From assembly GCA_963575745.1 (NCBI GenBank), contig CAUYUJ010000092.1, forward strand, positions 1 through 64,000: a stretch of 64,000 bases of DNA. The letters run 5' to 3'. The notes beneath the pieces were generated by a model. That model made no database searches. It was not told where the DNA came from and saw nothing but the letters and a program-made list of their open reading frames with translations. Below, one piece after another: positions 24,194-56,945 of the stretch. The first letter of the stretch is position 1; the number at the start of each line of letters is the position of its first letter. The DNA is from Prorocentrum cordatum. Its lineage: Eukaryota. Both the position numbers and the translations under genes were made by a program.

Positions 24194-24245
<52 letters not shown>

Positions 24246-24339: not shown

Positions 24340-24434
24340 CTGCAGCCCTGCAGCCGCTCGGCGCCCTCCCGCTGCAGCTGCGCGAGGCGGCCCGTGAGCC
24401 GCTCCTCGCGGCGCCCCAGGCGGTCCTCCGCCGC
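24340..24434 (-). CDS. Putative micro-exon of a host gene (AAEDRLGRREERLTGRLAQLQREGAERLQ)
   Basis: AG|G acceptor, AG|GC donor, GC3-rich codons, helical peptide. Confidence 0.45.
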
Positions 24435-30415: not shown

Positions 30416-30499
<84 letters not shown>

Positions 30500-30674
30500 G
30501 CATCAGCATCAGCATCATCAGCATCAGCATCATCAGCATCATCATCATCACCATCATCAGCATCATCATCATCATTATCATCATCATCATCCTCACCATC
30601 ATCAGCATCATCAGCATCATCCTCATCAGCATCAGCATCAGCATCAGCATCAGCATCAGCATCAGCATCACCAG

Positions 30675-30711
<37 letters not shown>

Positions 30712-32249: not shown

Positions 32250-32290
<41 letters not shown>

Positions 32291-33114: not shown

Positions 33115-33149
<35 letters not shown>

Positions 33150-33336
33150 GCATCAGCATCAGCATCAGCAGCATCAGCATCAGCATCAGCATCAGCAACA
33201 TCAGCATCATCAGCATCATCAGCATCAGCATCAGCAGCATCAGCATCAGCAGCATCAGCATCAGCATCAGCATCATCAGCATCATCAGCATCAGCATCAG
33301 CATCAGCATCATCAGCATTAGCATCAGCATCCTCAT

Positions 33337-33367
<31 letters not shown>

Positions 33368-36300
33368 ATCTGCATCAGCATCAGCGTCAGCATCACAAGC
33401 ATCAGCATTTGCATCAGCATTTGCACAGCATCATGATCATCATCATCAGCATCATCATCAATCATCAGTATCATCAGCATCATCATCAGCGTCATCATCA
33501 TCATGATGAGCATCAGCATCAGCATCATCAGCATCAGCATCATCAGCACCATCAGCATCAGCATCATCAGCATCAGCACCAGCAGCATCAGCATCAGCAT
33601 CAGCATCAGCATCAGCATCAACATCACCATCTTCATCCTCATCCTCATCCTCATCCCCATGATCCGCATCCTCATTATCATCAGCAGCATCATCATCAGC
33701 AGCATCAGCATCTGCAGCATCAGCATCAGCATCATCAGCATCAGCATCATCATCATCATCAGCATCGGCATCCTCATCCTCATCCTCATCCTCATCCGCA
33801 TCCTCATCCTCATCCTCATCCTCATCCTCATCCTCATCAGCATCCTCATCCTCATCCTCATCATCATCATCAGCAGCAGCATCAGCATCATCATCATCAT
33901 CAGCAGCATCAGCATCAGCATCAGCATCAGCAGCATCAGCATCATCAGCAGCATCAGCATCAGCATCAGCATCAGCAGCACCATCATCATCAGCATCGGC
34001 ATCAGCAGAATCATCAGCATCATCAGCAGCATCAGCATCACCAGCATCATCAGCAGCATCATCAGCAGCAGCATCAGCATCAGCATCAGCAGCATCAGCA
34101 TCAGCATCAGCATCAGCATCAGAATCATCATCATCAGCATCAACATCATCAACATCAGCATCAGCATCAGCATCCGCAACTTCATCCTCATCCTCATCCT
34201 CATCCTCATCAGCATCCTCATCCTCATCCTCATCATCCTCAGCCTCCTCATCATCATCATCAGCATCATCATCATCCTCATCATAATCATCATCAGCATC
34301 AGCCGCATCATCAGCATCATCAGCATCATCAACAGCATCAGCAGCATTAGCCGCATCATCAGCAGCATCAGCATCAGCATCAGCATCAGCATCATCATCA
34401 GCATCAGCAGCATCAGCAGCATCATCAGCAGCATCAGCATCAGCATCAGCATCAGCAACATCATCCTCATCCTCATCCTCATCCTCATCCTCATCAGCAT
34501 CCTCATCATCATCAGCATCAGCATCATCAGCATCATGATCATCATCATAATCAGCAGCATCATCAGCATCATCAGCATCATCAGCAGCATCAGCAACATC
34601 ATCCTAATCCGCATCCTCATCCTCATCCGCATCCTCATCCTCATCCTCATCCTCATCATCATCCTCATCAGCAGCAGCAGCATCATCATCAGCAGCATCA
34701 GCATCAGCATCAGCATCATCAGCATCATCTTCATCAGCATCAGCATCAGCATCAGCATCAGCATCAGCAGCATCATCAGCATCATCAGCAGCATCAGCAT
34801 CAGCATCATCATCAGCCTCATCATCAGCATCAGCATCAGCAGCAGCATCAGCATCATCAGCAACATCAACATCAGCAGCATCAGCAGTTTCATCAGCATC
34901 AGCATCATCAGCAGCATCATCATCAGCATCAGCATCATCAGCATCAGCATCAGCATCATCAGCATCAGCAGCAGCATCAGCATCAGCAACATCATCCTCA
35001 TCCTCATCATGATCCTCATCCTCATCCTCATCCGCATCGTCATCATCATCCTCATCCTCATCCTCATCCTCATCCTCATCCTCATCATCAGCAGCATCAG
35101 CATCAGCAGCATCATGAGCATGATCAGCATCATGAGCAGCATCAGCAGCAGCATCATCATCATCAGCATCAGCATCAGCATCAGCATCAGCATTCATCAT
35201 CATCATCAGCATCATCAGCATCATCAGCATCACCAGCATCATCAGCATCACCAGCAGCATCAGAATCAGCATCAGCATCAGCAACATCATCTTCATCCTC
35301 ATCCTCATCCTCATCCTCATCCACATCCTCATCACCATCATCATCATCAGCATCATCAGCATCAGCATCAGCATCAGCATCATCATCATCATAATCAGCA
35401 GAAGCATCAACATCCTCAGCAGCATCCGCATCAGCATCATCAGCATCAGCATCAGCATCAGCATCAGCATCATCGACATCAGCATCAGCATCAGCAACAT
35501 CATCGTCAATCCTCATCCTCATCCTCATCCGCATTCTCATCATTATCCTCATCCGCATCCTCATCATCATCATCAGCATCCTCATCAACAGCAGCATCAT
35601 CATCTGCAGCATCAGCATCAGCATCAGCATCAGCAACATCAGCATCAGCACCAGCGTCATCAGCATCATCATCAGCAGCGTCATCAGCAGCATCAGCACC
35701 AGAATCAGCATCAGCATCAGCATCAGCAACATCATCCTCATCCTCATCCGCATCCTCATCCTCATCCTCATCCTCGTCCTCGTCCTCATCCTCATCATCA
35801 GCAGCATCAGCATCATCATCAGCATCAGCATCATCATCAGCACCAGCATCAGCATCAGCATCGGCATCAGCATCAGCATCAGCAACATCATCCTCATCCT
35901 CATCCTCATCCTCATCATCAGCATCATCATCATCATCATCATCATCATCAGCATCAGCATCAGCAGCATCATCAACATCATCAGCATCATCAGCAGCATC
36001 AGCATCAGCATCAGCATCAGCAACACCATCTTCATCTTCATCCTCATCCTCATCCTCATCACCATCAACATCAGCATCATCATTATCATCATCAGCATCA
36101 GCATCATCATCATCAACAGCAGCATCAACATCCTCAGCAGCATCAGCATCAGCATCAGCATCATCAGCATCAGCATCAGCAGCACCGGCATCATCATCAT
36201 CATCATCATCATCATCAGCAGCATCATCTTCATCGTCATCCACATCCGCATCCTCATCCTCATCCTCATCCTCATCATCATCCTCATCATCATCAGCAGC

Positions 36301-36748
36301 AGCATCATCATCATCATCTGCAGCATCAGCATCGGCGTCATCAGCATCAGCATCAGCATCAACATCAGCAACATAATCCTCATCCTCATCCGCATCCTCA
36401 TCCTCATCCTCATCCTCATCGCAAGAATCAGCATCAGCATCAGCATCAGCATCAGCATCAGCAACATCAGCATCAGCATCAGCATCAGCATCAGCATCAG
36501 CAACATCATCCGCATCCTCATCATCATCCTCATCCTCATCCTCATCCTCATCCTCATCATCAGCAGCATCCTCATCATCAGCATCGGCATCCGCATCAGC
36601 ATCAGCATCAGCATCAGCATCCGCATCATCATCCTCATCCTCATCCTCATCTTCATCAGCATCAGCATCAGCATCAGCAGCATCAGCAGCAGCAGCAGCT
36701 TCATCAGCAGCATCAGCTTCATCCACATCCGCATCCTCATCCTCATCC

Positions 36749-36779
<31 letters not shown>

Positions 36780-37049
36780 CATCATCACCACCATCATCAT
36801 CATCAGCAGTATCAGCATCAGCATTATCATCAGCATAATCAGCAGCAGCATCAACATCCTCAGCAGCATCAGCATCATCAGCATCATCTTCATCAGCATC
36901 AGCATCAGCATCATCAGCATCAGCATCAGCAACATCATCGTCATCCTCATCCTCATCCTCATCCGCATCCTGATCCAAATCCGCATCCTCATCATCATCC
37001 TCATCATCATCCTCATCATCATCATCATCATCATCATCAGCAGCATCAG

Positions 37050-37098
<49 letters not shown>

Positions 37099-37659
37099 TG
37101 CAGCATCAGCATCAGCATCAGCAGCATCAGCATCAGCAGCATCAGCATCAGCATCAGCAGCATCAGCAGCAGCAGCAGCATCAGCATCAGCATCAGCAAC
37201 ATCATCCTCATCCTCATCCTCATCCTCATCCTCATCCTCATCCTCATCGCAATCATCAGCACCAGCATCAGCATCAACATCAGCATCATCAGCACCATCA
37301 GCATCAGCATCAGCATCAGCATCAGCATCAACATAAGCAACATCATCCTCATCCTCATCCGCATCCTCATCCTCATCCTCATGCTCATCCTCATCCTCAT
37401 CCTCATCATCAGAAGCATCCTCATCATCAGCATCAGCATCAGCATCAACATCATCAGCAACATCATCATCAGCAGCATCAGCATCAGCGTCAGCATCAGC
37501 AACATCATCCTCATCCTCATCCTCATCCTCATCTTCATCCAGCATCAGCATCAGCGTCAGCGTCATCAGCATCATCAGCAGCGTCCGCATCAGCATCAGC
37601 ATCAGCAACATCATATTCATCCTCATCCTCATCCTCATCCTCATCACCATCACCATCAC

Positions 37660-37694
<35 letters not shown>

Positions 37695-37880
37695 ACAGCA
37701 GCAGCATCAGCATCAGCGTCAGCATCATCATCATCAGCATCAGCAGCATAATCAGCATCATCAGCAGCATCAGCATCATCAGCAGCAGCATCAGCATCAG
37801 CGTCAGCATCATAATCATCAGCATCAGCAGCATAATCAGCATCATCAGCAGCATCAGCATCATCAGCAGCAGCATCATCC
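30350..37880. repeat. ~7.5-kb compound trinucleotide array of (CAT)n, (CATCAG)n and (CATCCT)n
   Basis: Direct reading; source of the poly-M/D/H/I/S pseudo-ORFs. Confidence 0.97.
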
Positions 37881-37957: not shown

Positions 37958-38046
37958 CTCCAGAGCCGCCCTGTAGTCCTCCAGGCTGGTTTCCAGCTGC
38001 CTCGACCACTCGGTCAGCCAGGCCTTCGCCTTGGGCACGTATCCGC
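37958..38046 (-). CDS. Putative micro-exon of a host gene (GYVPKAKAWLTEWSRQLETSLEDYRAALE)
   Basis: Island of complex sequence between microsatellites; AG|G acceptor, GAG|GC donor; strong GC3 bias. Confidence 0.6.
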
Positions 38047-39777
38047 CTCCTCCTCCTGCTCCTCCGCCCTCCTCCTCCTCCTCCTCCTCCTCCTCCTCCT
38101 CCTCCTCTTCCTCCCTCCGCCTCCTCCTCCTCCTCCTCCTCCTCCTCATCCTCATCCTCCTCCTCCTCCTCCTCCTCCTCCTCCTCCCCCTCTCCCTCCC
38201 CCTCCCCCTCCTCCTCTTCTTCTTAGTATTATTAGTATTATTATGCTTATGCTTATTAGTAATATTATTATTATCATCCTCCTTATTTTTATTATCAGTA
38301 GTAGTATTATTAGTATTGTTATTAATAATATTAGTATTAGTAGCATTATTATTCGTATTATTGTTATGATCCGTCTTCTCATTAGTATTCTTATGATCAG
38401 TATTCGTATTATTATTCTTATTCGTGTTGCGATTATTCGTATTAGTATCATTATTAATATCATTAGTATTATTATGATTGGTATGGTTATCATTATTAAC
38501 AATTGTCTTCCTCCTCCTCCTCCTCCTTTTCCTCCTCCTCCTCATCCTCCTCCTCCTCTCTCCCCTCCCCCTCCTCCTCGTTCCCCCGTTCCTCCTCCTG
38601 GGATCTGGGATCTGGCGGCGGTGGAGTCGTTCAGACGCAGCCATCACCCCCGCTCAGGGGATGTTGCCCACGGGGGGGTGATCAAGCTAGTATATATGTA
38701 AGGCAACAGCGGACAAGACAAGATGGCACCCCCAGAGGCGGGGCAACATGTCCCCTTGCGCCCGGGGGGCGAGGGAAGGAGGAAGGGAGGCACCAGATCA
38801 TAGCCGAAAAACAATGAGGAGTGGCGACAGCGCGGGTGGCAACTTGCGATTTGAGTTTAGCAAGCGTGGCCGGGGCCACACTCGCCAAAGGTAGGATGGG
38901 GCAAGGGTGCCTCCCCTCACCTATAAGGGATACCAGGAAAGACGATCCCCAGTCGAGGCCAGGAACCCTGACTGGCCGAGGTGCGGGCCATCCAGGGGCC
39001 CCCACTGGGTCAGCGTAAGCGCGTAAGTTTTCTCCACCGCCCACGATCCCACCCCATCCTTCGATACCCCCATCGTAGAGCGGCAGCGGCGGCGAGGCAG
39101 CGGGGCTGGCCGCGGCCGCCCTAGCAGCGGGGCTGGCCGCGGCCGCCCTAACCTATGCCAAAGCGGCCGTCGGCGTTCTCGTTGACTGAGTTATCGTGGC
39201 GGCTGGGAAAAGGAGCGCACATGAAAGAGGTTAGGAGCTGCAGGAGAGTCTGGAGCTGGCGTAGCGAGCTGCGCGCTGGCACGCGAGAGTGCGCTGAGGC
39301 CCACGTGCAGCGTGCTTAGTGCAGCTGTGAAGTCAAAGAGGTGCGCGGCCCCCATGGGTGTGCTCCTTGGTCGCCCTGGTCTTTACAGGACGGAATGGGT
39401 GGCACAGGATACGTAGTGGGAGCCGATATGATGCGAGCTTGGAGAAACTGTACTCCTCCTCCTCCTCCTCCTCCTCCTCCTCCTCCTCCTCCTCCTCCTC
39501 CTCCTCCTCCCCCTGCTGCGCCTCTGGTGGGGATAGGAACAGTGCCGTCGGGCAGCCCAGGCGGCACGTCACGCTCGGCTCGCGCGTGCGCCTCCAGTAG
39601 GGAGACTTGATCGACAGCATGCCTTCGAAGCACACTCGGATCCTGTTTTCCAACGTACTGATGTCCGATGCGAGTCAACGTTTGCAGAGGGCTCGATTTC
39701 GTTCTTGGCACAGAGCCCCATGGTCTAGCTCAGGTCAGCTCAGCTCCTCCCCTGCCCTTCCTCCTCCTCCTCCTCCT

Positions 39778-39808
<31 letters not shown>

Positions 39809-41312
39809 TCCTCCTCCTCCTCCTCCTCCTCCCCCTCCTCCTCCTCCTCCTCCTCTTTCTCCTCCACCACCACCACCACTACCATCACCTTCCCCCCTCA
39901 TCCTCTGCCGCCTCCTCCTCCTCCTCCTTCTCCTCCTCCTCCTCTTCCTCCTCCTCCTCCTGCTCCTCCTCCTCCTTCTCCTCCTCCGCCTCCTCCTCCC
40001 CCTCCCCAGGGTCCCCTGACCAGGCTCAGGGCAGTGCCCGTCGTGAGCACGAGGAAGAGAGGCGTATCGACTCCAGAGGGGGTGACTCGGGAGGTGCGTC
40101 ATACTATGCCTCGGGCTGCTCTCGATGGTGGCTCCGGCCAACCCCGCCCCTGACTGCGGGCAGTAGCTGAGTCTCGCGTCAGGCCGCCCGCTGGTGCTCA
40201 GGCAAAAGAAATCCGCCGAGCCCTTGGGGTTCCATCGGCGTGGGAGGTGCTTCCCGCTCCCCAAACCCCTCCCCCTGGAGCCGGATCCGGTCGATTTGGA
40301 GGGGGGGAGCGGGGTCTACCTGGGCCGGCCAGGGGGGCATTTTGCTCCAGAAATTCTGCCTGTAGGACACCGAGGGCCTCGAAACGGGCCACGAGGGCCC
40401 CCAAGAGACCTCCCAGAAGGGCCCAACAAGGGGACCACGAACTGAAAATTTAAACTTTCCGCCCCAAGAGACCCCCAAGGGGCCCCAAGAGGCCCCCAAG
40501 GGGCCCCAAGAGGCCCCCCAAGAGACCCCAAAAAGGTGCAAAAGAGGCCCGAAGAGTCCCCAAAACAACCCCCCAGAGGCCTCCAAACTGCCTCTGGCAG
40601 GCCCCCGAGAGGCTTCTCACGAGATCCGAACGAATATCCAAGAGGCCTCTGAACCCCAGGCATGGTGGCGGGATGGACCAAAGGCCACTAGATAGAAATA
40701 CAAGCATGAGTCTCGCAGCACCCAGAAACCGCAACAGCGACTTTCCCTCAAGGGGTCGGCGGTGCGGCGCAAGCCAAATAATCAAAAGAGAGCCAGGAAG
40801 TTGGGCAGGAAGTATTGTCTCCCCCCCTAATCCCCCCTTGGAGTCGCGCCACTCCGCCGTATCAAGGTGGTGGCCCCTTTTCGGGCTCTCAAAACCTGTA
40901 AAAAACTAAGGGAAATCCACGACTTTGGCCTCTGGGGCCTCTTGGGACTCCGCGAAGCGAGAGGAATCAAAAGAGAGCCAGGAAGTTGGGCAGGAAGGAC
41001 GTGGCACACTCGGAGTGAGCCGCGCTCGTCGCTGGAGACCTTCTCGGAGGACTCGTGCGCAGGCCGCGGGCGACCCACTCGGAGTGGCGCGGCTCGCTCG
41101 GTAGGATCGCACGTGTGGGGGGCAGGGGCGCTCGGTGCACGCTGCACCGCGACCCCAGCCTTCTCTCGTTCCTCGCCGCGTTCTGTTCTGGACCTTGGTT
41201 TTTTTAGACCCGTGCGAATCCATGACAAATCTGCCATGCTCCTCCTCCCGCCCATCCCGCCTGCTGCCCCTGCGCCTCCTCCTCCTCCTCCTCCTCCTCC
41301 TCCTCCTCCTCC

Positions 41313-41388
<76 letters not shown>

Positions 41389-41434
41389 CAACATCATCAT
41401 CATCATCATCATCATCAGCAGCATCATCATAATC

Positions 41435-41687
41435 ATGCAATCTTGAACGGACACCCCTCCCAGGGCGTGGGCCCCAAGAGACTCGGAACGGCGTCAGCCT
41501 AACGGAAAAAGACAGCGGGCGTGACGAGGACTTTCATTTCTTTTTACAGCGCCGGAGCTCAGGCCCACGCCTGAGTGCACTTGCGATGGCGGCTGACGGC
41601 AGAGCTGAAACACTGAGAGCCCCTGGCCCACGAGGCCGAGGGGGCTCGAGAAATCTGACAGTCTGGCCAGACCATTAATCAAACCCA
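41435..41687 (-). repeat. Terminal repeat B2 (3' end of the element)
   Basis: Near-identical to 41825-42078; one substitution and one 1-bp indel seen. Confidence 0.95.
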
Positions 41688-41750
41688 AATTCGCAGAAGT
41701 CCAAGCTACTTTGCCTCTCCTCCAGCGTTTCCCTGGGTGGGAAGGGCGGG

Positions 41751-41826
41751 ACGGCAGAAAGGCTTGAGGGGAAGAGGCAGCGGGAGGGGAGAAAGCGAAT
41801 GCACAAGCGATGAGACCAAATGCAAT
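41751..41826 (-). repeat. Internal repeat A2
   Basis: 76-bp copy of 48718-48793; abuts B1, reproducing the end-to-end junction. Confidence 0.95.
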
Positions 41827-42078
41827 GCAATCTTGAACGGACACCCCTCCCAGGGCGTGGGTCCCAAGAGACTCGGAACGGCGTCAGCCTAACGGAAAAA
41901 GACAGCGGGCGTGACGAGGACTTTCATTTCTTTTTACAGGCGCCGGAGCTCAGGCCCACGCCTGAGTGCACTTGCGATGGCGGCTGACGGCAGAGCTGAA
42001 ACACTGAGAGCCCCTGGCCCACGAGGCCGAGGGGGCTCGAGAAATCTGACAGTCTGGCCAGACCATTAATCAAACCCA
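41825..42078 (-). repeat. Internal repeat B1
   Basis: Copy of 41435-41687. Confidence 0.95.
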
Positions 42079-42161: not shown

Positions 42162-43157
42162 TTACGAGAGGAAGGACAACTGCAAGGCCTCAGCACGCTT
42201 AGCCTCTGCCTTCACAGCGGCCGAGAGGCGTCTGAAGGATGCAAGAGCACGGCCGCTCTTCTGATAGCGCTGCACAGAACGGAAGCTCGACCACCTGCCA
42301 CGAGACTGAATGTCGGCCAGCGAGCGGGCGCCTCTGAGGTAGTCCTCCGACGGACCGCCGTGCCGAGGGAGGTGGGCTGTCACCTTGGTCGGGAGGCCGA
42401 CGGCGACGGCGGCCTTCTTGAGCAAGCGGTTGTACGAAGCGTACGAGTGGAGGAACATGAGGCGCCCTTGGAGGGCTTGGTTGGCGCTCTTGACGAGGGC
42501 CATGAGCGCGCCAGCCACACCCGCACGAGACTGGCCATCGATGAGCACGGTGTCGTCCTGGAGGCCAGTCTTGGTGACGCGCGTGTGCACGTCGTCGCCC
42601 ATGACCAGCGCGGAGGCGCCGACGACGAGCCCCATCTTGTTGTACCCTGAGCCGGCACTCGGCTGCGGCAGGATGCAGCAGGGCACGCGGAGGTCCAGCA
42701 GCTCACCAGGGCGCAAGTACGTGTCAAACTGCACCACCAGGCCGCGGGCGGCCTGCAGGGCAATCTCCGTGTTGAGGCCGGCCAGGTACAGAGCCATCAA
42801 GCACGCTGCCGCCCAGCAGAGCGGCTCCGAGGTGACGTCCGGCTCGAGCTTGCCCCAGCCGGCGAGGGCGCCCTTCGCCTTCGGGAAGACGCCTGGGGCA
42901 CGAAGCGACACGCTGAAACGGTAGGCCAAGGCGGCCAAGGTGTAGCGGGCCGTGCTCTTGCTGCCGCCGTCGACGTAGAGCTGCTCGAAGTACTCCTCAA
43001 GGAGCGTGTCCACCAGGGGGAGGTCATTGCTCACCCAGCGGTCGGCGACAACGCCCATGGCCGTGGCGAACACGGCGACGCTGGCGAGGTAGCGGGCCTG
43101 AGTGGCCGGCCGCACCTGCGAGCGCCGCAGGAAGCCCGGCGAGGAGTCAGCGGGCAC
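42162..43157 (-). CDS. Tyrosine recombinase (~330 aa; start uncertain)
   Basis: Catalytic set YLRPGE (R), TKTG (K), HLPRHGG (HxxR), GRW (W), VQRY (Y); N-terminal helical region TQARY...LEEYFEQLY; C-terminal part of track ORF 42162-49286. Confidence 0.93.
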   Translation of the reverse strand: MPADSSPGFLRRSQVRPATQARYLASVAVFATAMGVVADRWVSNDLPLVDTLLEEYFEQLYVDGGSKSTARYTLAALAYRFSVSLRAPGVFPKAKGALAGWGKLEPDVTSEPLCWAAACLMALYLAGLNTEIALQAARGLVVQFDTYLRPGELLDLRVPCCILPQPSAGSGYNKMGLVVGASALVMGDDVHTRVTKTGLQDDTVLIDGQSRAGVAGALMALVKSANQALQGRLMFLHSYASYNRLLKKAAVAVGLPTKVTAHLPRHGGPSEDYLRGARSLADIQSRGRWSSFRSVQRYQKSGRALASFRRLSAAVKAEAKRAEALQLSFLS

Positions 43158-46100
43158 CTGGCGGGCCCGGGCAGCCGACGCCCGGCCTCTGCCGAGGCTT
43201 CGGCCTTGCCCGCGGCCGCGGGAGGCCGACGAAGCGGCCCCAGCCCTCGGCGTCGGGCGGCCAGAGCGCGACCCACTTCCGCGGGCAGCTGGGGCACTCG
43301 AGGGACGGCTGGACGTCGCCCATCTTGGCTGCACGGCGGAGCTGAGCCTCCCAGTGACCGGGCAGCAGTGGATCCCCATCTGGTCGCCAGGCTCCAGCGG
43401 GCGCCGCGCGCGCCAAGGCCCGGGCGGCGCTGTGGCAGACACCAGGAGGGTAGGCGCCAGCCAGGGTCGTGCGCCAGAACTGTTTGAGCCGACCCTGGCG
43501 ATCACGGACCTTGACCTTCCCCTGAAGATGCTCGTGGGCATGACCTCCAAGACAACGCCTTTCAAGGATACCGAGCTCGGGGAGGTCAGACTCAATCCTG
43601 GTGGGCTTCTGGTACGGGGCTCCAAACTGACAGCAGTCATACACCACGGAGACCTTGCTATGCTCGGACAGGAACTTCTGGAGAGGCTCCCAAGAGAAGA
43701 GCCGGGATCCCCGGGGGTTCTCGAGGGACCACCTGACGCCGAACTGAACGCACAACCGAAGTAGACGAAGAGTGACATGAGCACACCGCCGACCGGCGCG
43801 TATAGCAGACGTATCATTGGCCCCACGGCGAGCAACTGACCACGGAGTGCACGGAGTCCCGAAGTGCACGAACCAGACCTTGCGAGAGACGATCCACTGG
43901 CGAACGACGGTCTCGATGCTGGGCCGAAGCAGGTCGCCCCAACCCCCGAACTTGATGTCGATCGGAGCCGCGACAGCCAGACCGAGCTGCGCGAGAGCCC
44001 CCGTCCAGCGAGCCCCCCCCGAGAAGATCTCGAGAGCCGCCCGACGTCCACGAAGCCGAGGTACAGGAACACGAGCCGGCTCGACCGCGACGAACGGCGT
44101 GGGCGGAGGGGGCAGCAGCCCGGGAGGCTCTGTCGTCCATTTTCGGCCAGGCCGGGCATGCAAACGAAGGCTCCCGAGGGCAGGCGGCCCGCGCGGCGCG
44201 CTCCCGGCGCGCGTGCGCGGCCCGGAGCGGCCAAGACGTGGCGGGGCCCGCTCAGAAGAGAGCAGCCGAGGCCCCGGCACGAGTCTCCGTCCAACTCGTC
44301 CGAGGGCCCCAGCAGGCCGCGGCGCAGGCACTGGCCGCGGCCGTGGGCGGCGCCCGCGTGGGCAGGCCGCCGGCGGCGACAGGTCGCGGGCCCCCTCGGC
44401 CTCGTCGAACGTCGCCTTGCGTGCAGGGTGGCCAGGGGCGCCGGCCGCGGGCCCCTCCTGTGGCCGTGGGGAGCGCCGCGGCCCGCAGCGGCCAGCAGCT
44501 CCAGAAGCCCGCGGCGGCGGCCGCGGCGGGCAGGTCTGAAGTCGGCCGCCGCGCAGCCGCGCCGCGGGGGGAGGCTCGCAAGCCTCCTCGGAGACTGGCC
44601 AGCTGGCGGTCGCCGAGGGCGCCGGCGGGGCCGGCGTCGGGGGCGCCGACGGCGGGCAGCCCGCGGGCAGAGCCGGCCTGTCCGACCTGCCGCCAACCCG
44701 CCGCTGCCCTGGGCGGTAGACGCCCTGCAGCGCCTTCCTCGACCCCGCGTCACAGAGGTTGCGGTCCGTGTCGAGGTGTCGGCGCCGCCAGGAGATCCCA
44801 CAGGCGATCTGGTAGGCGGCGGCCCTCCGGCACAGACAGGCGAGGCCGAGGTCCACGGCTCGCCCCTTCTCGATGGAGAGGAGCTCCGACATGTTGTCGC
44901 CCAGGCTGAGCACGCGGGACCCGTGGCAGTCGACCTGCCGGGCGGCGTGCCGCAGGCCCCCCAGGGCGATGCGGCCCTCCAGCAGGTGAATGGGGGCCCC
45001 GCGGCGCCAGGCGCCCTCCACGATGAGAGACCAGTCCCTGGGATCGACGAGGCTGTCGGGCACGGAGACGCCAGCAGGTCGCACAGTGGGCCTGAGACGA
45101 CCCTTGAGTACGCCTCGGGCGCCCTCCCTCGAGCGCGTCGGCGGGGGGGCCCAGACGGCCACGCCTGTAGCGCCCGGCGGCTCCCCCAGCACTCCTCCAG
45201 CGCCCGGCACCCAGCCCGGGGAGAAGGTGTCGTCGAGCGCCGCGTCGGGCCGCTTCTCGTCGGGGACGAACCTCCACCTCTCCCGGGTAGCAGCCAGCTG
45301 CCGAAGGAGTCGCACGTCAGCGCGTCGGCGGTGGAGAGCGTAGCCCGCCTCGGACGAGTCGGAGCACAAAACCAGGGAGGACATCGGCCGGTCCAAGAAG
45401 ACGACGGCCTGGAAGATGAGGCCCCTGAAGAGCTGGATCTCCCGGCGGGCCCCAGCAGACAGAGCGACTGGGGGCCCCTGGCCCTGCGCGTCCACGAAGC
45501 GGTAGAGCAGGCGGAAGATCGAGAGGGCCGGCCGCAGCAGCAGGCAGTGCTGCACACAGTGCCCGAGGAACACTCGGATCTGCCAGGCCGCGCGCGGAAC
45601 CCCAGGGCGCTCGAGCTCCTGACAGGCCAAGTAGAGGCGCCAGGCTCGGTGATCGGAATGACGCAGACGCCTCCGCCTCCCGTCGTACTCGACGCCGACG
45701 GTGGTGAAGTGCGTGGCCGGGCCCTCGACCTCGTGGTACGCGATGCCGAGCGAGTCGAGCTTGTCCTTCGCGGCCTGCAACGCCTGCCCGACGTCGTCGC
45801 TCGAAAGGCCCAGGAACGAGACGTTGTCCACGTAGACCGACCCTGTGGGGCGGAAGGGTGCCGCGACGGGAGCCGGCTGCTTGTCGAGCAGCAGGCGTCG
45901 GGCACCCCCCGGCAGCGTGTCAGAGACCCAGGACGTGACGGACGAGTGCACGGCCCAGAGTGCCCATGACCACCCCATCGGCACCCCGCGGAAGACCGGG
46001 AAGACGAGCTCGTCGGGGTCGACAGGGGACAGGCCGTCGGGCGTCCAGATGTGGGAGACCTGGTAGTAGGAGGCCCGCTCAGGGAAGTCCATCCCGAAAT

Positions 46101-47019
46101 CCTCCGCGACGCGCTCCGAGAAGAACTGGTAGAACGAGTCCTGGAGGTCGAGGGACGACCCGAAGATCTGAGCGGGGGAGCCATCAGCACTAACCCATCC
46201 AGCGTCCGAGAGCGCAGCATCGGACCAGTCCTGCTCGCTGAGGGCAGCCGGGGTCCCGAGGGCGGCATGCGGCGGCGCCCAGTGGGTGCGGTTGGTGTCG
46301 CGAGCGTCGACGACCAGGCGGATCCAGCCGCCCTTCTTCTCGACGAAGAAACACCCCACACGTGACCTGATTCGCCTCTGGAAGCCGACCAGCCCCCGCC
46401 CCGCGAGCCTGAGAAGGAAGTCCCGCCGAAGGCTGGCGTCGCTGGCAAGCCGCGCGTCCCAGTACGGCTTGATCGGCGGCAGGAGCTCGAGGTCCTGCTC
46501 CACCACGCGGTCCGGCTTGCGGATGTAGGCGTCGGGGTCGCGGAAGGCGTCGACGACGAACTTGGGGCAGACCTCCTCCACGTCTCGAGGCGTGACCGAG
46601 GACTGCCAGAACTTGAGCTTGGACTCTTCGTACGGGACGACCTTGGACGGCGCGCCTCCGTAGAGCGAGTCGGACTTGAGGAGCTCCTGAAGGGCTCCGC
46701 GAGGGTGGAGACCTGCCGGGCGAGGGCCATACTCCGCCACGCAGCGGCCGAGCTGCCGGCCACACGAGGACGAGGTCGCCGCACCCGCAGTCCCTGAATC
46801 GGCAGCGCCACCTGGCCCGCGGCCACGATGGCGCACCGTGCAGGCGGCGAGACAGTTGATCGAATGTACTGCCTCACGAACACGGTGTTCACGTGAGCGT
46901 CGCTGGAGCACCCGCTGGCGCAGGTACCGCGGCGCCCCGCTGAGGTCGACCGGCGGCGCAGGCCCCGGGACCGAAAGCGGCAGCGGGCCCCCGTGCGAGG
47001 AGCGTGATCCCGATGCCAT
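43147..47019 (-). CDS. Pol polyprotein: reverse transcriptase, RNase H and C-terminal cytosine-5 methyltransferase (frame open to 47151; first ATG at 47019)
   Basis: RT: FFVEKK..IRLVVDAR, LDLQDSFYQ, PMGWSWA, YVDN. RNase H: SDSS, HLLE, GDN, NLCD. MTase: LEIFSG, GTPC, ENP, KPT, AYP. Confidence 0.93.
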   Translation of the reverse strand: MASGSRSSHGGPLPLSVPGPAPPVDLSGAPRYLRQRVLQRRSREHRVREAVHSINCLAACTVRHRGRGPGGAADSGTAGAATSSSCGRQLGRCVAEYGPRPAGLHPRGALQELLKSDSLYGGAPSKVVPYEESKLKFWQSSVTPRDVEEVCPKFVVDAFRDPDAYIRKPDRVVEQDLELLPPIKPYWDARLASDASLRRDFLLRLAGRGLVGFQRRIRSRVGCFFVEKKGGWIRLVVDARDTNRTHWAPPHAALGTPAALSEQDWSDAALSDAGWVSADGSPAQIFGSSLDLQDSFYQFFSERVAEDFGMDFPERASYYQVSHIWTPDGLSPVDPDELVFPVFRGVPMGWSWALWAVHSSVTSWVSDTLPGGARRLLLDKQPAPVAAPFRPTGSVYVDNVSFLGLSSDDVGQALQAAKDKLDSLGIAYHEVEGPATHFTTVGVEYDGRRRRLRHSDHRAWRLYLACQELERPGVPRAAWQIRVFLGHCVQHCLLLRPALSIFRLLYRFVDAQGQGPPVALSAGARREIQLFRGLIFQAVVFLDRPMSSLVLCSDSSEAGYALHRRRADVRLLRQLAATRERWRFVPDEKRPDAALDDTFSPGWVPGAGGVLGEPPGATGVAVWAPPPTRSREGARGVLKGRLRPTVRPAGVSVPDSLVDPRDWSLIVEGAWRRGAPIHLLEGRIALGGLRHAARQVDCHGSRVLSLGDNMSELLSIEKGRAVDLGLACLCRRAAAYQIACGISWRRRHLDTDRNLCDAGSRKALQGVYRPGQRRVGGRSDRPALPAGCPPSAPPTPAPPAPSATASWPVSEEACEPPPAARLRGGRLQTCPPRPPPRASGAAGRCGPRRSPRPQEGPAAGAPGHPARKATFDEAEGARDLSPPAACPRGRRPRPRPVPAPRPAGALGRVGRRLVPGPRLLSSERAPPRLGRSGPRTRAGSAPRGPPALGSLRLHARPGRKWTTEPPGLLPPPPTPFVAVEPARVPVPRLRGRRAALEIFSGGARWTGALAQLGLAVAAPIDIKFGGWGDLLRPSIETVVRQWIVSRKVWFVHFGTPCTPWSVARRGANDTSAIRAGRRCAHVTLRLLRLCVQFGVRWSLENPRGSRLFSWEPLQKFLSEHSKVSVVYDCCQFGAPYQKPTRIESDLPELGILERRCLGGHAHEHLQGKVKVRDRQGRLKQFWRTTLAGAYPPGVCHSAARALARAAPAGAWRPDGDPLLPGHWEAQLRRAAKMGDVQPSLECPSCPRKWVALWPPDAEGWGRFVGLPRPRARPKPRQRPGVGCPGPPGAR
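43400..44040 (-). other. DNA cytosine-5 methyltransferase domain within Pol
   Basis: Motif I LEIFSGG, motif II-like PIDI, motif IV FGTPC (catalytic Cys), motif VI SLENP, FGAPYQKPT, motif X-like AGAYP. Confidence 0.88.
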
Positions 47020-47125
47020 GGGGAGGACGAGGAGGCGGCCGCGGCGGAGGAACCCGCGGCGGCAGCCAGGCAGGGCGGGGCGCCGCAGGACGCCCAGCCC
47101 AAGAAGGGGGCCGCCCGGCCCCCTG

Positions 47126-48250
47126 CTACTTGCCAGCGTCGGCCCCGCCACCCTTCGGCCCCTTCGGGGGCGCCTTGGGCTGCGCGGCCGTCCTCTCCTC
47201 CTGCCACTGCCGATTCGCCTTCATGGTCTGGGCGCGGGCACGCGCCTGGTCGCCAACCCATCCGTCGAACTCCGGCAGCACCATGCCGCCCGTGTCGTCG
47301 ACCCCCGTGTCGAGGATGAGGTCGAGCCCCTCGAAGTCGGGGGCCCGAGGGTTCTTGCGGGTCGCCGACTCCAGCTGCTTGAGCCGCCTGACGAGATACT
47401 CCGCGCCCGCAATGTTGAACAGGTCGAGCTGATCGAACTGCTGCATCATCCGAAAAGACACGCAGATCATGTGGTGCTCCCGGGCGACGTTGCCGCGCTC
47501 GGCCACTCCGCTGCGGCGGAGCCACGTGGTGTGGTGCTCCTCCCAGTTGCCCTGACCACCGTCTCGAAGGGAAAGCACAGCCTCCCTCGTCGCACGGCGG
47601 CCCTGCAGAGGCCAGCCCGGTATCGTCGCCTCCTTCATGCGGCGAACCGAGTCCCGGAAGTCGATGTACCTGCCTCCATCCTGGTCCCTCTCGTCGCCCA
47701 CGACGCGCGGGCCCCGGCCCGCGCCCCCGCGAGCTCGGGCGAGGTACGTGTCGAAGTTCTGGCCCTCGCTCACCTTGATCGCGTGGACCCAGACGTCGTC
47801 GAGCCGTACGAGCCCAACATCCCCACGCCGCACCAGGACCTCCTCGTTGGCGAGGACCTGCGGCGGCACCTCCTCGCCGAAGTGCGACGAGGTGGGGTCG
47901 CTCACGTACCACTTGTCCCCGGGGAGGCCCACGACGCCGGCGAGGTCGAACCCGAGGATCGTCCCCAGGGCCCTGGCCTCCTCGAGGTAGCCCTGCATGT
48001 CCTCCGCCGCCACTTCGTCGAAGGCGTAGATGTTGCCAGCATGCCGCGCTGGGAAGGGGCCCGACCGCCGGAGGGCCAGCACTCGGAACGTGGCCAGGTC
48101 GACGAAGGCCACCTCCCCATCCGGCGTGAGCCAGATCCACTTCTGGGCATCTCCCTTCACCAGCAGCACACGGTGATGCCACTGGAAGTTCTCGTCGTCC
48201 TCGTACCTGACGAGGCACTGGCTGAACGGGGTGTCCAGCGCACGGGCCAT
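47126..48250 (-). CDS. Gag-like/structural ORF, 374 aa
   Basis: Intact, protein-like ORF with GCCGCCATGG start context, directly upstream of pol; no CCHC knuckle seen, so function is inferred from position only. Confidence 0.75.
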   Translation of the reverse strand: MARALDTPFSQCLVRYEDDENFQWHHRVLLVKGDAQKWIWLTPDGEVAFVDLATFRVLALRRSGPFPARHAGNIYAFDEVAAEDMQGYLEEARALGTILGFDLAGVVGLPGDKWYVSDPTSSHFGEEVPPQVLANEEVLVRRGDVGLVRLDDVWVHAIKVSEGQNFDTYLARARGGAGRGPRVVGDERDQDGGRYIDFRDSVRRMKEATIPGWPLQGRRATREAVLSLRDGGQGNWEEHHTTWLRRSGVAERGNVAREHHMICVSFRMMQQFDQLDLFNIAGAEYLVRRLKQLESATRKNPRAPDFEGLDLILDTGVDDTGGMVLPEFDGWVGDQARARAQTMKANRQWQEERTAAQPKAPPKGPKGGGADAGK

Positions 48251-48258
48251 GGCGGCCC

Positions 48259-48708
48259 TCAGTCAGCACGAGCACCAGGAGCCCGACGGCCACGCCCGAG
48301 ACCCGACGGCGTCGCCACGTGCGTGCCGCCGGCGTCGTCCTCGACGGCGAGGGCGCGCGCTCGCGCCGCCGGCCGTCCAGGCGAGCCCGCCGCCAGCCAA
48401 CCCGCGGTCGCCAGCCCAGCGCCAAGGGCCACGCCCACCACGGCCGCGCCGCAGAGGTCGAGCCCCGTGTAGTGCCCAGGCGGGAGCGGGCACGGAGGGC
48501 AGGGCTGGCACGCGACCCCCTGCAGGTGCTCCGGGCCGCAGCGTGCCAGCTGCTCCCGGAGGATGGCCACCAGGCCGTCGGTCGTGTCCGAGCCCTCGAA
48601 CACGCAGCGGCAGGAGACCTCGGCGATCCCGCTGCGGCCAGGTCCAGTCCAGCGCTCGGAGAGCGCGCCGAGAACCCACCCGCCTGCAGCGTGCACCCAG
48701 GCGGCCAT
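48259..48708 (-). CDS. Small Cys-rich predicted transmembrane protein (149 aa), first ORF of the YR element
   Basis: ATG just inside repeat A1; stop 8 bp before the gag ATG; CRC...C...CQPCPPCP, hydrophobic LCGAAVVGVALGAGLATAGWLAA, Arg-rich tail. Confidence 0.6.
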   Translation of the reverse strand: MAAWVHAAGGWVLGALSERWTGPGRSGIAEVSCRCVFEGSDTTDGLVAILREQLARCGPEHLQGVACQPCPPCPLPPGHYTGLDLCGAAVVGVALGAGLATAGWLAAGSPGRPAARARALAVEDDAGGTHVATPSGLGRGRRAPGARAD

Positions 48709-48717
48709 GAACTGTTC

Positions 48718-48790
48718 ACGGCAGAAAGGCTTGAGGGGAAGAGGCAGCGGGAGGGGAGAAAGCGAATGCACAAGCGATGAGACCAAATGC

Positions 48791-48793
<3 letters not shown>
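48718..48793 (-). repeat. Terminal repeat A1 (5' end of the element)
   Basis: Matches 41751-41826. Confidence 0.95.
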
Positions 48794-48885
<92 letters not shown>

Positions 48886-48901
48886 CCATCACCACCATCA
48901 C

Positions 48902-48943
<42 letters not shown>

Positions 48944-49361
48944 AATCCCCCACCTCCCACCTCCCTCCTACCCTTCTCCCCGTCTCCCGAGGGAGTGAGA
49001 GCGGGGAGGAGGGTGGTAGGGGGATGAAGGGGACGAGGGGGAGAGGGAGGAGGAGGTAGGCAGGAGCAGGAGGTGGAGGAGAAAGAGCAGGGAGGGGGGA
49101 GGATGAGGATGAGGATGAAGATGCTGAAGATGATGAAGATGATGGAGACGATGAGAGTGATGAGAGTGATGAGGATGACGAGGATGAGGAGGATGGTGAT
49201 GATGGTGAGGATGATGAGGATGATGAGGCTGATGAGGATGAGGATGATGAGGATGAGGAGGATGAGGAGGATGATGATGACGACATTGATGATGATACTG
49301 CTGATGTTGATGGTGATGATGACGATGCTGATGAACACGATGATGATGATGATGATGATGA

Positions 49362-49404
<43 letters not shown>

Positions 49405-49760
49405 GATGGTGATGGTGTTGATGATGAGGATGCTGATGGTGATGATGATGGCTATGACGATGAAAATGACGATGACGACGACGACCACGACGACGACGAC
49501 GACCACGACGACCACGACGACGGCGATGATGATGATATGATGGTGGTGATGATGATGCTGATGATGATAATAGTGGCGTTGGTGTTGCTGTTGTTGATGA
49601 TGATGACGATGATGATGATAAGGATGGTAGTAGTGGTGGTTGTTATGATAATAAGGATACTGCTGCTGCTGCTGATGATGATGGTGATGGTGATGATGAT
49701 GATGATGACGAGGTGAAGGAACACATACATAATAATAATGATAATACTAACAATAATAAT
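48794..49760. repeat. (CAT)n followed by oppositely oriented degenerate (GAT)n microsatellite
   Basis: Direct reading. Confidence 0.9.
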
Positions 49761-50192
49761 AAAATAAAACATTCCTATCAGTAATAATGGCGATCATGAT
49801 ATTCCGAATGATGGTAATAAAAGAATAAGACGGATATGAAGACGAATGATAATAAGAATAGTCGTAATATTAAGAAGAAGAATGATAAGAAAAATAATAA
49901 TAAGAAGAGGGCCAGAGGAAGGGAAGATGTAAAGGAGGGGCAGAGAGGGAGAGAGGAGAAGAAGGGAGGAGAGGGAAGGAGGAGATGGAGGCAGGATAGG
50001 GAGGAAGGAGAGGGAGGGAGGGACGAAGGAAGCGGCGTCGCCTCTGCCGAGATCCCCGGGCCCTCGTCCTGCGGAATGGGGGGGAGAGAGACCGAACAAC
50101 ACAAAAAAAGCCTGCGCAGGGCGGCGAGCGGCGCGGCGTGGCCCCTCTCCGGGCCTGGCCAGGCAAGGAGAGCGTAGAACGCCGCGTAGGGC

Positions 50193-51305
50193 TCTCCTTC
50201 TCCTCCTCCTCCTCCTCGTCCTCGTCCTCCTCCTTCTCCTCCCCCTCCCCCTCCCACTCCTCCTCCTCCTCCTCCTCCTCCTCCTCCTCCTCCTCCTCCT
50301 CCAGCTCCTCCTCCCCTCCCCCCCTCCCCCTCCCCCTCCCCCTCCCCCTTCCCCTCCTCCTCCTCCTCCTCCTCCTCCTCTCTTCCTCCTCCTCCTCCTC
50401 CTCCTCTCCTCCTCCTCTCCCTCCTTCTCCTCCCCCTCCTCCCCTCTGCCTCCTCCTCTCCTCCTCCTCCTCCTCCTCCTCCTCCTCCTCCTCCTCCTCC
50501 TCCTCCCCCCTCCGCCTCCCCTTCCTCCTCCTCCCTCCTTCCTCCTCCTTCCTCCTCTTCCTCCTCCCTTCCTCCTCCCTCCTCCTCCTCCTCCTCCTCC
50601 TCTCCTCCTCCTCCTCCTCCTCCTCTTTCTCCTCTCCTCCTCCTCCTCTCCTCCTCCTCCTCCTCCGCCTTCTCCTCCTCCTCCTCCTTCTCCTCCTCTT
50701 CGCCCTGGCCCGGCAAGGAGAGCGTGAAACTCCGCCGAAGCCCCGGGCGTCGGGGCCGCGCCCGCGGAGCCCCTCTGGGCCACGCGGGCGTCCGGAGGCC
50801 CTGCCAAGAACAGGGCTCGGAGTGGCCCGGGCCTCCGAGGGGGGATCCCCCTGGGCCGCCGACGGGTCGGGGATCGAGGAGGGGGAGCGAGGAGGAGGAG
50901 GAGGAGGAGGAGGAGGAGGAGGAGGAGGAGGAGGAGGAGGAGGAGGAGGAGGGGGGAGGAGGAGGAGGAGGAGGGAGGCAGAGAGGAGGAGGGGGAGTAG
51001 TAGAAGGAGGATGAGGAGGAGGAGGAGCAGGAGGAGGAGGAGAGGAGGAGGAGGAGGAGGAGGAGGAGGAGGGAGGAGGGGGAGGAGGAGGAGGAGAGGA
51101 GGAGGAGGAGGAGGAGGAGGAGGAGGAGGAGGAGGAGGAGGAGGAGGAGGAGGAGGAGGAGGAAGGAGGAGAGAGGAGGGAGGAGAGGAGGAGGAGGAGG
51201 AGGAGGAGGAGGAGGGGAGGAGGGGAGGAGGAGGAGGAGGAGGAGGGAGGAGGGGAGGAGGAGGAGGAGGAGGAGGAGGAGGAGGAGGAGGAGGAGGAGG
51301 GAGGA

Positions 51306-51337
<32 letters not shown>

Positions 51338-51612
51338 GAGGAGGAGGAGGAGGAGGAGGAGGAGAGGAGGAGGAGGAGGAGGGAGGAGGCAGGAGGAGGA
51401 GGCAGGAGGCAGGAGGCAGGAGGCAGGAGGCAGGAGGCAGGAGGCAGGAGGGCAGGAGGCAGGAGGCAGGAGGAGAGTGGAGGAGGAGGAGGAGGAGGAG
51501 GAGGGAGGAGGAGGAGGGAGGAGGAGAGGAGGAGGAGGAAGAGGAGGAGGAGGGGGAGGAGAAGGAGGAGGAGGAGGAGGAGAAGGGAGGAGGAAGAGGA
51601 GGAGGAGGAGGA
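50193..51612. repeat. (CCT)n - ~180-bp spacer - (GGA)n inverted microsatellite pair
   Basis: CCT tract 50193-50700, GGA tract 50878-51612. Confidence 0.9.
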
Positions 51613-51939
51613 ATAGGAAGAGGACCAGCGCAAACCCAAGACTCATCAACGATGTTGTAGTAAACCCTCCCTCCGAGCTCCCTTCTCATAGGCCCCTTAT
51701 AAGGGTTCATGCCCACTGAGGGAACTGCCTCGTTGGGAGACCGCCGTTTGAAGACCCTGAAGCATGCCAAAACACCATTGTCGGGACTCCAACGCCACGG
51801 ATCAACCTGACTGTTGCGTCTTGACTGAATCGCGCCAGAACGCCGTTCCTGGGACTTTACCTCTGCAGATCAACGTAATCGCTGCACCCTCACAATCCTG
51901 AATCCCTCCTAAACACAGTTTCTGGTACGTTGACCATTG

Positions 51940-52178
51940 GAACCCGTGAAACTCTTGCAAGTCTTAGGAACGAATGCGCGGCGCTACGGCAATAACCACA
52001 TTTTGAAAACGAGCCACCCTCAATCCGTGAAACTCTTGCAAATGTTCAAGACGAGTGTGCACGGCGTAAGGGCGAAAGCCATATTTTGAAAACGAACCAC
52101 CCTGAATCCGTGAAGCTCTTGCAGATTTGAAAACGAATGTGCGCTGTGCTAAGGCGAGAGCCACAGTTTGAAAACCAC
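51940..52178. repeat. ~82-bp degenerate tandem repeat, 3 copies
   Basis: ccgtgaa-ctcttgca...tttgaaaac recurs at ~51944, 52024 and 52107. Confidence 0.75.
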
Positions 52179-52319
52179 CCGCTCTCCATGTGTGAACTGT
52201 TGCCAACGTTTAAGCTTCAGGGTCATCTATGGTGAGGGAAGTCTCAGGCGAAACGCCCGGCCCGCCCTTTCGACCGGCCTCGGGGTGCGACAGGGAGGAG
52301 CTATTTGACAGGGAATGGA

Positions 52320-53155
52320 GGAGGAGAAGGAAGAGGGATAGGTGGGAGGAGCAGGAGGAGGAGGAGGAGGAGGAGGAGGAGGACGAGGAGGAGGAGGAGG
52401 AGGAGGAGGAGGAGGAGGAGGAGGAGGAAGAGGAGGAGGAGGAGGAGGAGGAGGAGAGGGAGGAGAGAGAGGAAAGAGGAGAGAAGTAGAGGAGAGAGGA
52501 GAGAGGAGAGAGGGGAGAGGAAAAGAGGTGAGAGGTGTGAGGAGAGAGGAGAGAAGAGAGAGGAGAGAGAGGAGAAGAGGAGAGAGAGAGAGAGGAGGAG
52601 GAGGAGGAGAGCAGGAGGAGGAGGAGCAGAGGAGGAGGAGAGGGAGGAGGAGGAGGTGGAGGAGGAGGAGGAGGAGGAGTTCTTGCAACATCAACAGGTG
52701 AACGCACGGCAGCAACAACGGGTGCTGCTGCCAAAAAGCTGTGACCCTTCCGAAGGTGCGCGCTGAGCACCTGCGCAAGCCCAGCGCCACCAAAGAACAG
52801 GCACAGGAAACGGGATGTGTATGGTCTGTCCAGAGCCCGCCTGAGGAGGGGAAGGAGGAGGAGGAGGAGGAGGAGGAGGAAGAAAAGGAGGAGGAAGAAA
52901 AGGAGGAGGAGGAGAAGGCGGAGGAGGGGGAGGCGGAGGGGGAGGAGGAGGAGGAGGAGGAGGAGGAGGAGGAGGAGGAGGAGGAGGAGGAGGAGGAGGA
53001 GAAGGGGGAGGCCGAGGAGGAGGAGGAGGTCGATGATGATGCTGCTGATGATGATGATGCTGATGATGATGCTGCTGATGATGTAGATGAGGAAGAAGAT
53101 GATGATGATGATGATGATGTTGATGATGATGATGATGATGACCATGATGATGACC

Positions 53156-53227
<72 letters not shown>

Positions 53228-56891: not shown

Positions 56892-56945
<54 letters not shown>

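Follow-up and report, generated by a model that had tools for sequence, protein, structure and literature searches.

Here, we present an analysis of the reverse transcriptase (RT) encoded in a 64,000-nucleotide stretch of DNA from Prorocentrum cordatum (NCBI GenBank assembly GCA_963575745.1, contig CAUYUJ010000092.1, positions 1 to 64,000 of the forward strand; in the following, the window). The RT is part of the pol open reading frame (ORF) of an intact ~7.4-kb DIRS-like (tyrosine-recombinase) retrotransposon of a dinoflagellate, and its active-site motif C reads YVDN instead of YxDD. This analysis followed up an initial annotation of the window, which had noticed the deviating motif and had left two explanations, i.e., a lineage-wide non-canonical active site or an inactivating mutation in this copy. 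To judge from the sequences that we compared, YVDN is the lineage-wide state and not damage to this copy. More importantly, we conclude, with a probability of about 0.8, that the element encodes an active RT in which YVDN is ancestral, arose once from a YIDD or YLDD ancestor, and has Asn in place of the third carboxylate of the active site. The type of element (described in 2018) and the tetrapeptide (described for nematodes in the literature from 1999 to 2022) were already known; what appears to be new is that YxDN is fixed in a huge dinoflagellate clade of DIRS-like elements.

Positions 45823-45834 of the window read TAC GTG GAC AAC on the minus strand, i.e., in the reverse complement of the window, and encode YVDN as amino acids (aa) 440-443 of the pol ORF (43147-47151, minus strand; P0002), which comprises 1334 aa and contains zero internal stops. 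The initial annotation had read motif C as SVYVDNVSFLG, which spans 45808-45840, and this reading is borne out by the codons as well as by the structural model of the RT described below. The catalytic Asp of motif A is present (Asp335), while the Y/F-x-D-D form of motif C is not, the sequence being YVDN. Further RT motifs discernible in pol are FFVEKKGGWIRLVVDARDTN, DLQDSFYQF (motif A), and PMGWSWA (motif B). The motifs that form the basis of the following comparisons are:

45823..45834, minus strand: core of RT motif C, YVDN, with Asn443 replacing the second Asp of YxDD, based on the sequence, a hairpin turn in the model and the register over YIDD
46123..46149, minus strand: RT motif A, DLQDSFYQF (aa 335-343), with Asp335 conserved in 99% of the clade
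45961..45981, minus strand: RT motif B, PMGWSWA (aa 391-397), with Trp396 typical of the clade and H or S at this position in outgroups

Asp338, at position +3 of motif A, is a gain typical of the clade. For comparison, motif B of the human immunodeficiency virus type 1 (HIV-1) RT has the form PQGW, as opposed to PMGWSWA here.

As sister copies, we used the P. cordatum gene-model proteins from database clusters, of which 41 members were listed; 31 of these cover the RT core, and the remaining 10 are short fragments that do not. By core identity to the window copy, they read as follows:

Same subfamily, 94-100% identity (two copies at 100%): YVDN in 12 and YVDD in 1 (P0210, 94.4%, the most diverged)
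P0009, 79.6% identity: YVDN in 0 and YVDD in 1
Next subfamily, 66% identity: YVDN in 17 and YVDD in 0

The proteins with 94-100% core identity are annotated as Prorocentrum cordatum and further relatives come from Polarella and Symbiodinium, as expected for a dinoflagellate host; the description of the RT in the initial annotation as that of a dinoflagellate tyrosine-recombinase element was right. Among the relatives from the first search (Prorocentrum, Polarella, Symbiodinium, and environmental assemblies), 32/36 have Asp-Asn (DN) at the last two positions of motif C, and DN persists down to about 25% identity across all four sources. An exhaustive search returned 3653 clusters with E<=0.001, of which 310 had E<=1e-30, and sampling covered the best 150 of the 3653. 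Of all proteins fetched, 189 had an RT match, and 174 of these cover motif C. DN is present in 160/174 and DD in 3/174, while the remaining variants are GN, DK, DG, HT, AN, DS, DI, and DA. DD occurs in a few decayed copies, namely P0009, P0210, and P0130 (the last of which reads RVDD). At the DNA level, 80 metagenome loci were retrieved using the motif B pattern GW[STA]W, and 79 of these cover motif C; DN is found in 78/79, NN in 1/79, and DD in 0/79. Asn is encoded by AAC in 44 and by AAT in 35 of these loci, and because both codons are in use, it is the residue that is kept and not the codon. The pattern favors the DN clade, since outgroups have GFSH or GWSH in motif B; thus, the metagenome count speaks to the constancy of Asn within the clade and not to the limits of the clade.

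To determine the polarity of the change, we used a FastTree phylogeny of 155 RT cores with a coverage of at least 80%. The 150 non-outgroup sequences form a single clade with a Shimodaira-Hasegawa (SH)-like support of 0.78. This clade contains 138 DN sequences and 12 scattered singletons with other residues (D, K, S, I, G, A, T, and the like), each of which lies beside DN sisters. The outgroup sequences all have DD (5/5), i.e., YIDD in P0190, P0191, and P0192 and YLDD in P0193 and P0195. The environmental family around P0192 is a sister family that is alignable to the hidden Markov model (HMM) of our family across the whole RT core (E 1e-35) and shares PMG[WF]S in motif B; unlike the clade of the window element, it reads PMGFSHA in motif B and [VYI][IV]DD in motif C, with DD in 120/120 of the proteins returned in a search starting from P0192. 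P0192 also scores above the cut-off for Pfam RVT_1 (39.8 bits). The simplest history would be a single change from DD to DN at the base of the clade, followed by random changes in decaying copies. Within the clade, conservation is 94% for Asn, 96% and 97% for Tyr and Asp of motif C, 99% for Asp of motif A, and 100% and 92% for Gly and Trp of motif B. In Nei-Gojobori comparisons of the RT core, saturation (aa identity <=0.41) led us to exclude 47 of 52 pairs; the five unsaturated pairs, which fall into two groups and all bear YVDN, have dN/dS ratios (nonsynonymous over synonymous substitution rates) of 0.03-0.05 at a dS of 0.66-1.15. Altogether, YVDN appears to be the ancestral and selectively maintained active-site sequence of a very large RT clade.

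The identification of the RT derives from relatives and from structure because pol lacks a sequence match in Pfam and in the PDB. Specifically, Pfam searches with pol, whole and in pieces, gave zero matches to RT, RNase H, or DNA methyltransferase (DNMT) families, and neither whole pol nor the RT piece matched RVT_1 even at E<=10; similarly, a single-sequence search of the PDB with pol gave no match. RVT_1 was reached weakly by 6/53 relatives (best E 1.9e-5). An AlphaFold2 model of pol aa 151-800, built with an alignment of 53 relatives, has a predicted local distance difference test score (pLDDT) of 89.9 and a predicted template modeling score (pTM) of 0.88 and delineates two domains:

45382..46605, minus strand: RT domain (fingers-palm-thumb/connection; model residues 33-440), based on the AlphaFold2 model, Foldseek, and VIA, with no Pfam match for this copy
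44752..45381, minus strand: RNase H domain (model residues 441-650, of which 483-541 are a disordered insert), based on a fold match, with conserved acidic residues

In Foldseek, the model matches the RTs of human endogenous retrovirus K (HERV-K; E 9e-15), Moloney murine leukemia virus (MMLV), cauliflower mosaic virus (CaMV), and Ty3, down to E 4e-13, and the matches extend to the RTs of foamy virus and HIV-1 with E up to 1e-10. VIA-align gave a Z of 13.7 to the Ty3 RT (4ol8_A) and a Z of about 13 to fingers-palm fragments of MMLV (root mean square deviation [rmsd] 3.8 A over ~230 residues), and model residues 441-650 aligned to RNase H1 (4e19_B) with a Z of 12.1 and an rmsd of 2.5 A. The predicted fold is, therefore, a right hand of fingers, palm, and thumb followed by RNase H, as in retroviral/LTR (long terminal repeat)-type RTs. 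In the model, YVDN (model residues 290-293) joins strands 286-290 and 293-298 as a hairpin turn, the location of motif C in RTs. In a comparison of the family profile with the PDB, YVDN aligned over YIDD of the HERV-K RT and of the G2L4 RT; the scores of these sequence matches are weak (E about 0.4). Accordingly, profile matches to RTs in the PDB (E 0.1-0.4) were used for the residue register only, and the fold search carried the weight. The RT thus shares the RT and RNase H fold with the canonical YxDD RTs (Ty3, MMLV, HERV-K, CaMV, and HIV-1), and motifs 1/2 (FFVxKK...RLVxDxRxxN), motif A (DLxDxF), and motif E of the latter are discernible in it. It differs from them in having only about 11-16% identity, DN instead of DD, and, in this copy, no match to RVT_1.

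We infer that the enzyme most likely still polymerises DNA. Both this activity and the metal-binding geometry are read from the comparisons above: the two metal ions would be coordinated by Asp335 of motif A together with Asp442, which is the first Asp of motif C, and the side-chain amide of Asn443 would take over the position of the third carboxylate. In favor of an active RT are the selection acting on the domain, the retention of the whole catalytic apparatus, the near-identical, intact, multi-copy elements, and the precedent in nematodes discussed below. In particular, the gag, pol, and recombinase ORFs of the window copy are open, its repeats are 99-100% identical, and its RT core recurs with 100% identity in two P. 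cordatum gene models; together, these features fit recent transposition. It is also background to this proposal that some RNA-dependent RNA polymerases, i.e., L of Mononegavirales and VP1 of birnaviruses, function with GDN or ADN in motif C. As in the RT described here, Asn replaces the second Asp of motif C in these right-hand polymerases; however, they are RNA-dependent RNA polymerases that are unrelated to this RT beyond the palm fold. As a substitute acid pair, we considered SSDD seven residues downstream of YVDN; this candidate was rejected, as the following helix begins with it and the family consensus does not retain it.

Several points weigh against this conclusion. We know of no enzyme assay for any YxDN RT, and the AlphaFold model is a prediction that contains neither metals nor substrate. 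A role in nucleic-acid binding alone would equally manifest itself as selection on the domain and conserved catalytic residues. The support for the branch of the clade is moderate (0.78); sampling of the best 150 clusters leaves the deeper family outside the tree; the metagenome pattern GW[STA]W is biased toward the DN clade; and most copies are known only as gene-model proteins. Moreover, passages of the Sinbad paper (2005) report that mutation of either Asp of YXDD in the RT of HIV-1 or MoMLV inactivates the polymerase, and they leave open whether Asn can replace Asp with activity retained.

Among the alternatives, the second explanation of the initial annotation, i.e., that this copy carries a private inactivating mutation, or a sequencing or assembly error, in a family that normally reads YVDD, has a negligible probability. 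AAC and GAC are only one A-to-G change apart, and a few relatives do carry DD (YVDD in P0009 and P0210 and RVDD in P0130). However, 12 of the 13 close copies at 94-100% identity read YVDN and only one reads YVDD; DN equally prevails in the family proteins (160/174) and in the independent metagenome loci (78/79); and the DD cases are nested singletons beside DN sisters, with P0009 being sister to the group of the window copy with a support of 0.994. The same three counts support the first explanation, a lineage-wide non-canonical active site, and the observation named in the initial annotation as speaking against it, i.e., sister copies with YVDD, was not made beyond this one copy in 13. The main rival, which we also consider improbable, is a loss of polymerase activity in the entire lineage. 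The RT-like domain would then persist for a function other than catalysis, e.g., scaffolding or the binding of RNA/cDNA, and another, canonical RT from the host genome would supply the cDNA in trans. The mutagenesis of HIV-1 and MoMLV RT cited in the passages of the Sinbad paper, according to which either Asp of YXDD is needed, would agree with such a loss; dinoflagellate genomes contain further RT families, among them DIRS-like elements with DD in Symbiodinium (P0195); and purifying selection is, on its own, no proof of catalysis. By contrast, the remaining catalytic and dNTP (deoxynucleoside triphosphate)-pocket residues are 92-100% conserved down to about 25% identity, which is unexpected for a dead polymerase, and conservation of Asn itself reaches 94%, although drift would be expected at a relaxed site. 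In addition, RT, RNase H, and recombinase have stayed together in a huge family (3653 clusters at E<=0.001), and YVDN also accompanies the proliferation of nematode Bel/Pao, which is a second, independent lineage.

A further alternative also involves an active RT, but one with a rearranged active site, in which the carboxylate lost from motif C was offset by the Asp gained at position +3 of motif A (DxxN+DD to DxxD+DN), possibly with a changed metal preference or fidelity. Only six positions of the core set the clade apart from the outgroups (K273, D338, W396, L398, V441, and N443), and most of these lie in or beside catalytic motifs, with D338 at motif A +3, W396 and L398 in motif B, and V441 at x of YxDD. 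DxxD is present in 120/138 DN sequences of the clade, as opposed to DxxN in 110/120 proteins of the P0192 family, all of which have DD (120/120), and the five outgroup sequences carry N or A at motif A +3. However, the association has exceptions: DxxN occurs with DN in 8 clade members (including P0033 and P0185), DxxC with DN in P0034, and DxxD with DD in 10 outgroup proteins. Thus, all four combinations of D and N at motif A +3 and motif C exist, and we rejected a strict swap between the two positions as a rule. Retroviral RTs, which combine DxxD with DD, also count against compensation. Moreover, the association essentially represents a single evolutionary event and, therefore, has no statistical weight. 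Altogether, we regard an offset of this type as unlikely, though less so than a loss of polymerase activity. We give the same low credence to the broader idea of a natural re-wiring, in which the third carboxylate has moved out of motif C and an Asp has been gained at motif A +3. The polymerase would be active, its acidic triad would be relocated or reduced, and its preference for divalent cations or its fidelity might differ. If it were true, this re-wiring, together with the independent YVDN in nematodes, would mean that nature can do without the "invariant" second Asp of YxDD.

The closest known system with a YVDN-bearing RT outside of dinoflagellates is provided by the nematode Bel/Pao elements (Belpaoviridae). 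In the parts of the literature that we consulted, YVDN is a family trait of Cer7-Cer12 and of Atlas virus, which is intact with identical LTRs, while the other Bel/Pao members Pao, BEL, and Sinbad keep YVDD according to the passages of the Sinbad paper. As here, apparently intact and recently active elements have YVDN; however, only the tetrapeptide is common to the two systems. The nematode elements belong to another order of retroelements, with LTRs, a protease, a DDE integrase, in some cases env, and animal hosts. The window element, in contrast, has split direct repeats and a putative recombinase of the tyrosine type, and Pfam searches with pol identified neither an integrase nor a protease family. 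Because the Bel/Pao RT is not closely related to the RT described here, Asn in the dinoflagellate clade arose independently.

By its architecture, the window element corresponds to SymbioDIRS-Dnmt3 of Symbiodinium, which main-text passages of de Mendoza et al. (2018, PMC5890265) describe as DIRS-like, with RT, RNase H, and a Dnmt3-type methyltransferase in Pol, a separate tyrosine recombinase ORF, and repeats in the order A-coding-B-A-B. The authors also remarked that the RT is divergent and fits Pfam poorly. The differences are that the host here is Prorocentrum and that the DNMT-like domain is too diverged for PF00145 and is seen by fold only. The Symbiodinium proteins P0028 and P0029 are in the same DN clade and share gag, the C-terminal domain, and the recombinase with the window element. 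P0195 from Symbiodinium kawagutii, on the other hand, encodes an RT with YLDD, followed by a PF00145 DNMT and then RNase H, and lies outside the DN clade; it represents the other published DIRS-DNMT architecture (RT-DNMT-RNase H) and is an outgroup to the clade of the window element. This placement agrees with the published view of two independent DNMT captures. The main-text passages of PMC5890265 mention neither YVDN nor YxDD, and the passages of a paper on DIRS/Ngaro elements in fungi contain nothing on it. Similarly, word searches of the literature and the passages of PMC5890265, supplements aside, gave no description of YxDN as the fixed state of a dinoflagellate DIRS-like RT clade. Judged by their titles, the papers listed in these searches that deal with RTs are those on Atlas virus (preprint and journal version) and on Sinbad, and dinoflagellates or DIRS elements are the subject of none.

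YxDD is regarded as a hallmark of RTs, and copies are called "active" or "dead" on its basis. Here, a family that comprises thousands of clusters from dinoflagellates and marine metagenomes retains YxDN under selection, and it represents a second, independent, and much larger natural case beside nematode Bel/Pao. Thereby, the family lends itself directly to testing the number of carboxylates required by an RT. The family is invisible to Pfam RVT_1, and annotation pipelines for transposable elements that demand RVT_1 or YxDD would miss or mis-score much of the retroelement content of dinoflagellates.

On the minus strand, the element has the order gag-like ORF (48250-47126), pol (47151-43147), and a recombinase ORF ending at 42162, and all three ORFs are conserved in relatives. 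Consistent with the initial annotation, which had described the element as otherwise intact with near-identical repeats, these ORFs are open and the repeats are 99-100% identical. Its parts are:

47126..48250, minus strand: ORF1, gag-like, 374 aa with an ATG start, without a Pfam family, conserved in relatives
43147..47151, minus strand: pol ORF, RT-RNase H-DNMT-like, 1334 aa, uninterrupted
43327..44040, minus strand: divergent DNMT3-like C5 cytosine methyltransferase domain at the C-terminus of pol, with EIFSGGA, GTPCTPWS, and LENPRGS motifs and a fold match
42162..43298, minus strand: putative tyrosine recombinase ORF, with a sub-cut-off match to Pfam Phage_integrase and LRPGE, HLPRHGG, GRW, and RY motifs found by eye
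41435..42078, no strand: 3' repeat block in the orientation of the element, with a 254-bp repeat (41825-42078), a 76-bp repeat (41751-41826), a 63-bp spacer, and a second 254-bp repeat (41435-41687)
48718..48793, no strand: 5' copy of the 76-bp repeat, 100% identical to 41751-41826

The gag-like, pol, and recombinase ORFs (42162-48250, minus strand) are in three different frames, each +1 to its predecessor, with overlaps of roughly 25-250 nt between neighboring ORFs; the overlap of gag and pol is 47126-47151, and the open pol frame extends back to 47220. The recombinase represents the last ~380 residues of a 2374-aa frame (42162-49286) and is its only real part, the rest being spurious and held open by a G+C content of 66-74%. 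It matches Pfam Phage_integrase with an E of 0.018-0.039, i.e., under the cut-off, while the Symbiodinium relatives P0028 and P0029 reach 5e-4. R...HxxR...Y-like motifs are present as judged by eye, and a comparison of the recombinase sequence with the PDB gave no meaningful match. A model of the C-terminal domain of pol (pLDDT 87.3) matches the methyltransferase domains of DNMT3A/3B in Foldseek (E 3e-6), and the PC and ENP motifs are retained; thus, the assignment of a C5-methyltransferase to Pol is a prediction from the fold, Pfam PF00145 giving no match to the domain of this copy. The domain is present in dozens of relatives, and its presence in a Prorocentrum element extends the DNMT-carrying DIRS elements to Prorocentrum in a very diverged form. 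Several RT-bearing gene models of the family (P0003, P0004, P0005, P0006, and others) are named "RNA-directed RNA polymerase" by a source and fuse gag, pol, and recombinase into one protein. In these gene models, a stretch of about 37 residues is also missing from the DNMT-like domain, as would result from an intron prediction within the transposon ORF.

The two 254-bp repeats are 99% identical, and, together with the 76-bp repeats, they give the A-coding-B-A-B layout of the split direct repeats of DIRS-like elements. Departures from the textbook layout are the 63-bp spacer and the flanking GAT-type microsatellites of ~150 bp, which adjoin both repeat ends (41277-41436 and 48792-48947) and are 85-95% alike. 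These microsatellites may belong either to the terminal repeat or to the target site. Based on tblastn, the window contains this one copy of the element only.

Outside of the element, three segments of the window (2000-8000, 23750-25400, and 55700-57700) have a G+C content of 68-74% and contain open frames of 300-650 aa. Twelve long frames of the window, including ones from each of these segments, matched no Pfam family; the frames in the high-G+C segments may represent further diverged repeats or open frames held by composition. A 7.5-kb (TCATCA)n array at 30416-37879 comprises about 1243 copies with 82% matches, has a GC skew of -0.5, and contains open frames in all phases. Long low-complexity tracts of the trinucleotide types CCT/TCC and GGA/GAG/GAT lie on both sides of the element (38000-40000 and 49000-53800), and some tracts are mutually inverted, as in the case of 48792-48956 and 53089-53253, with 90% complementarity.

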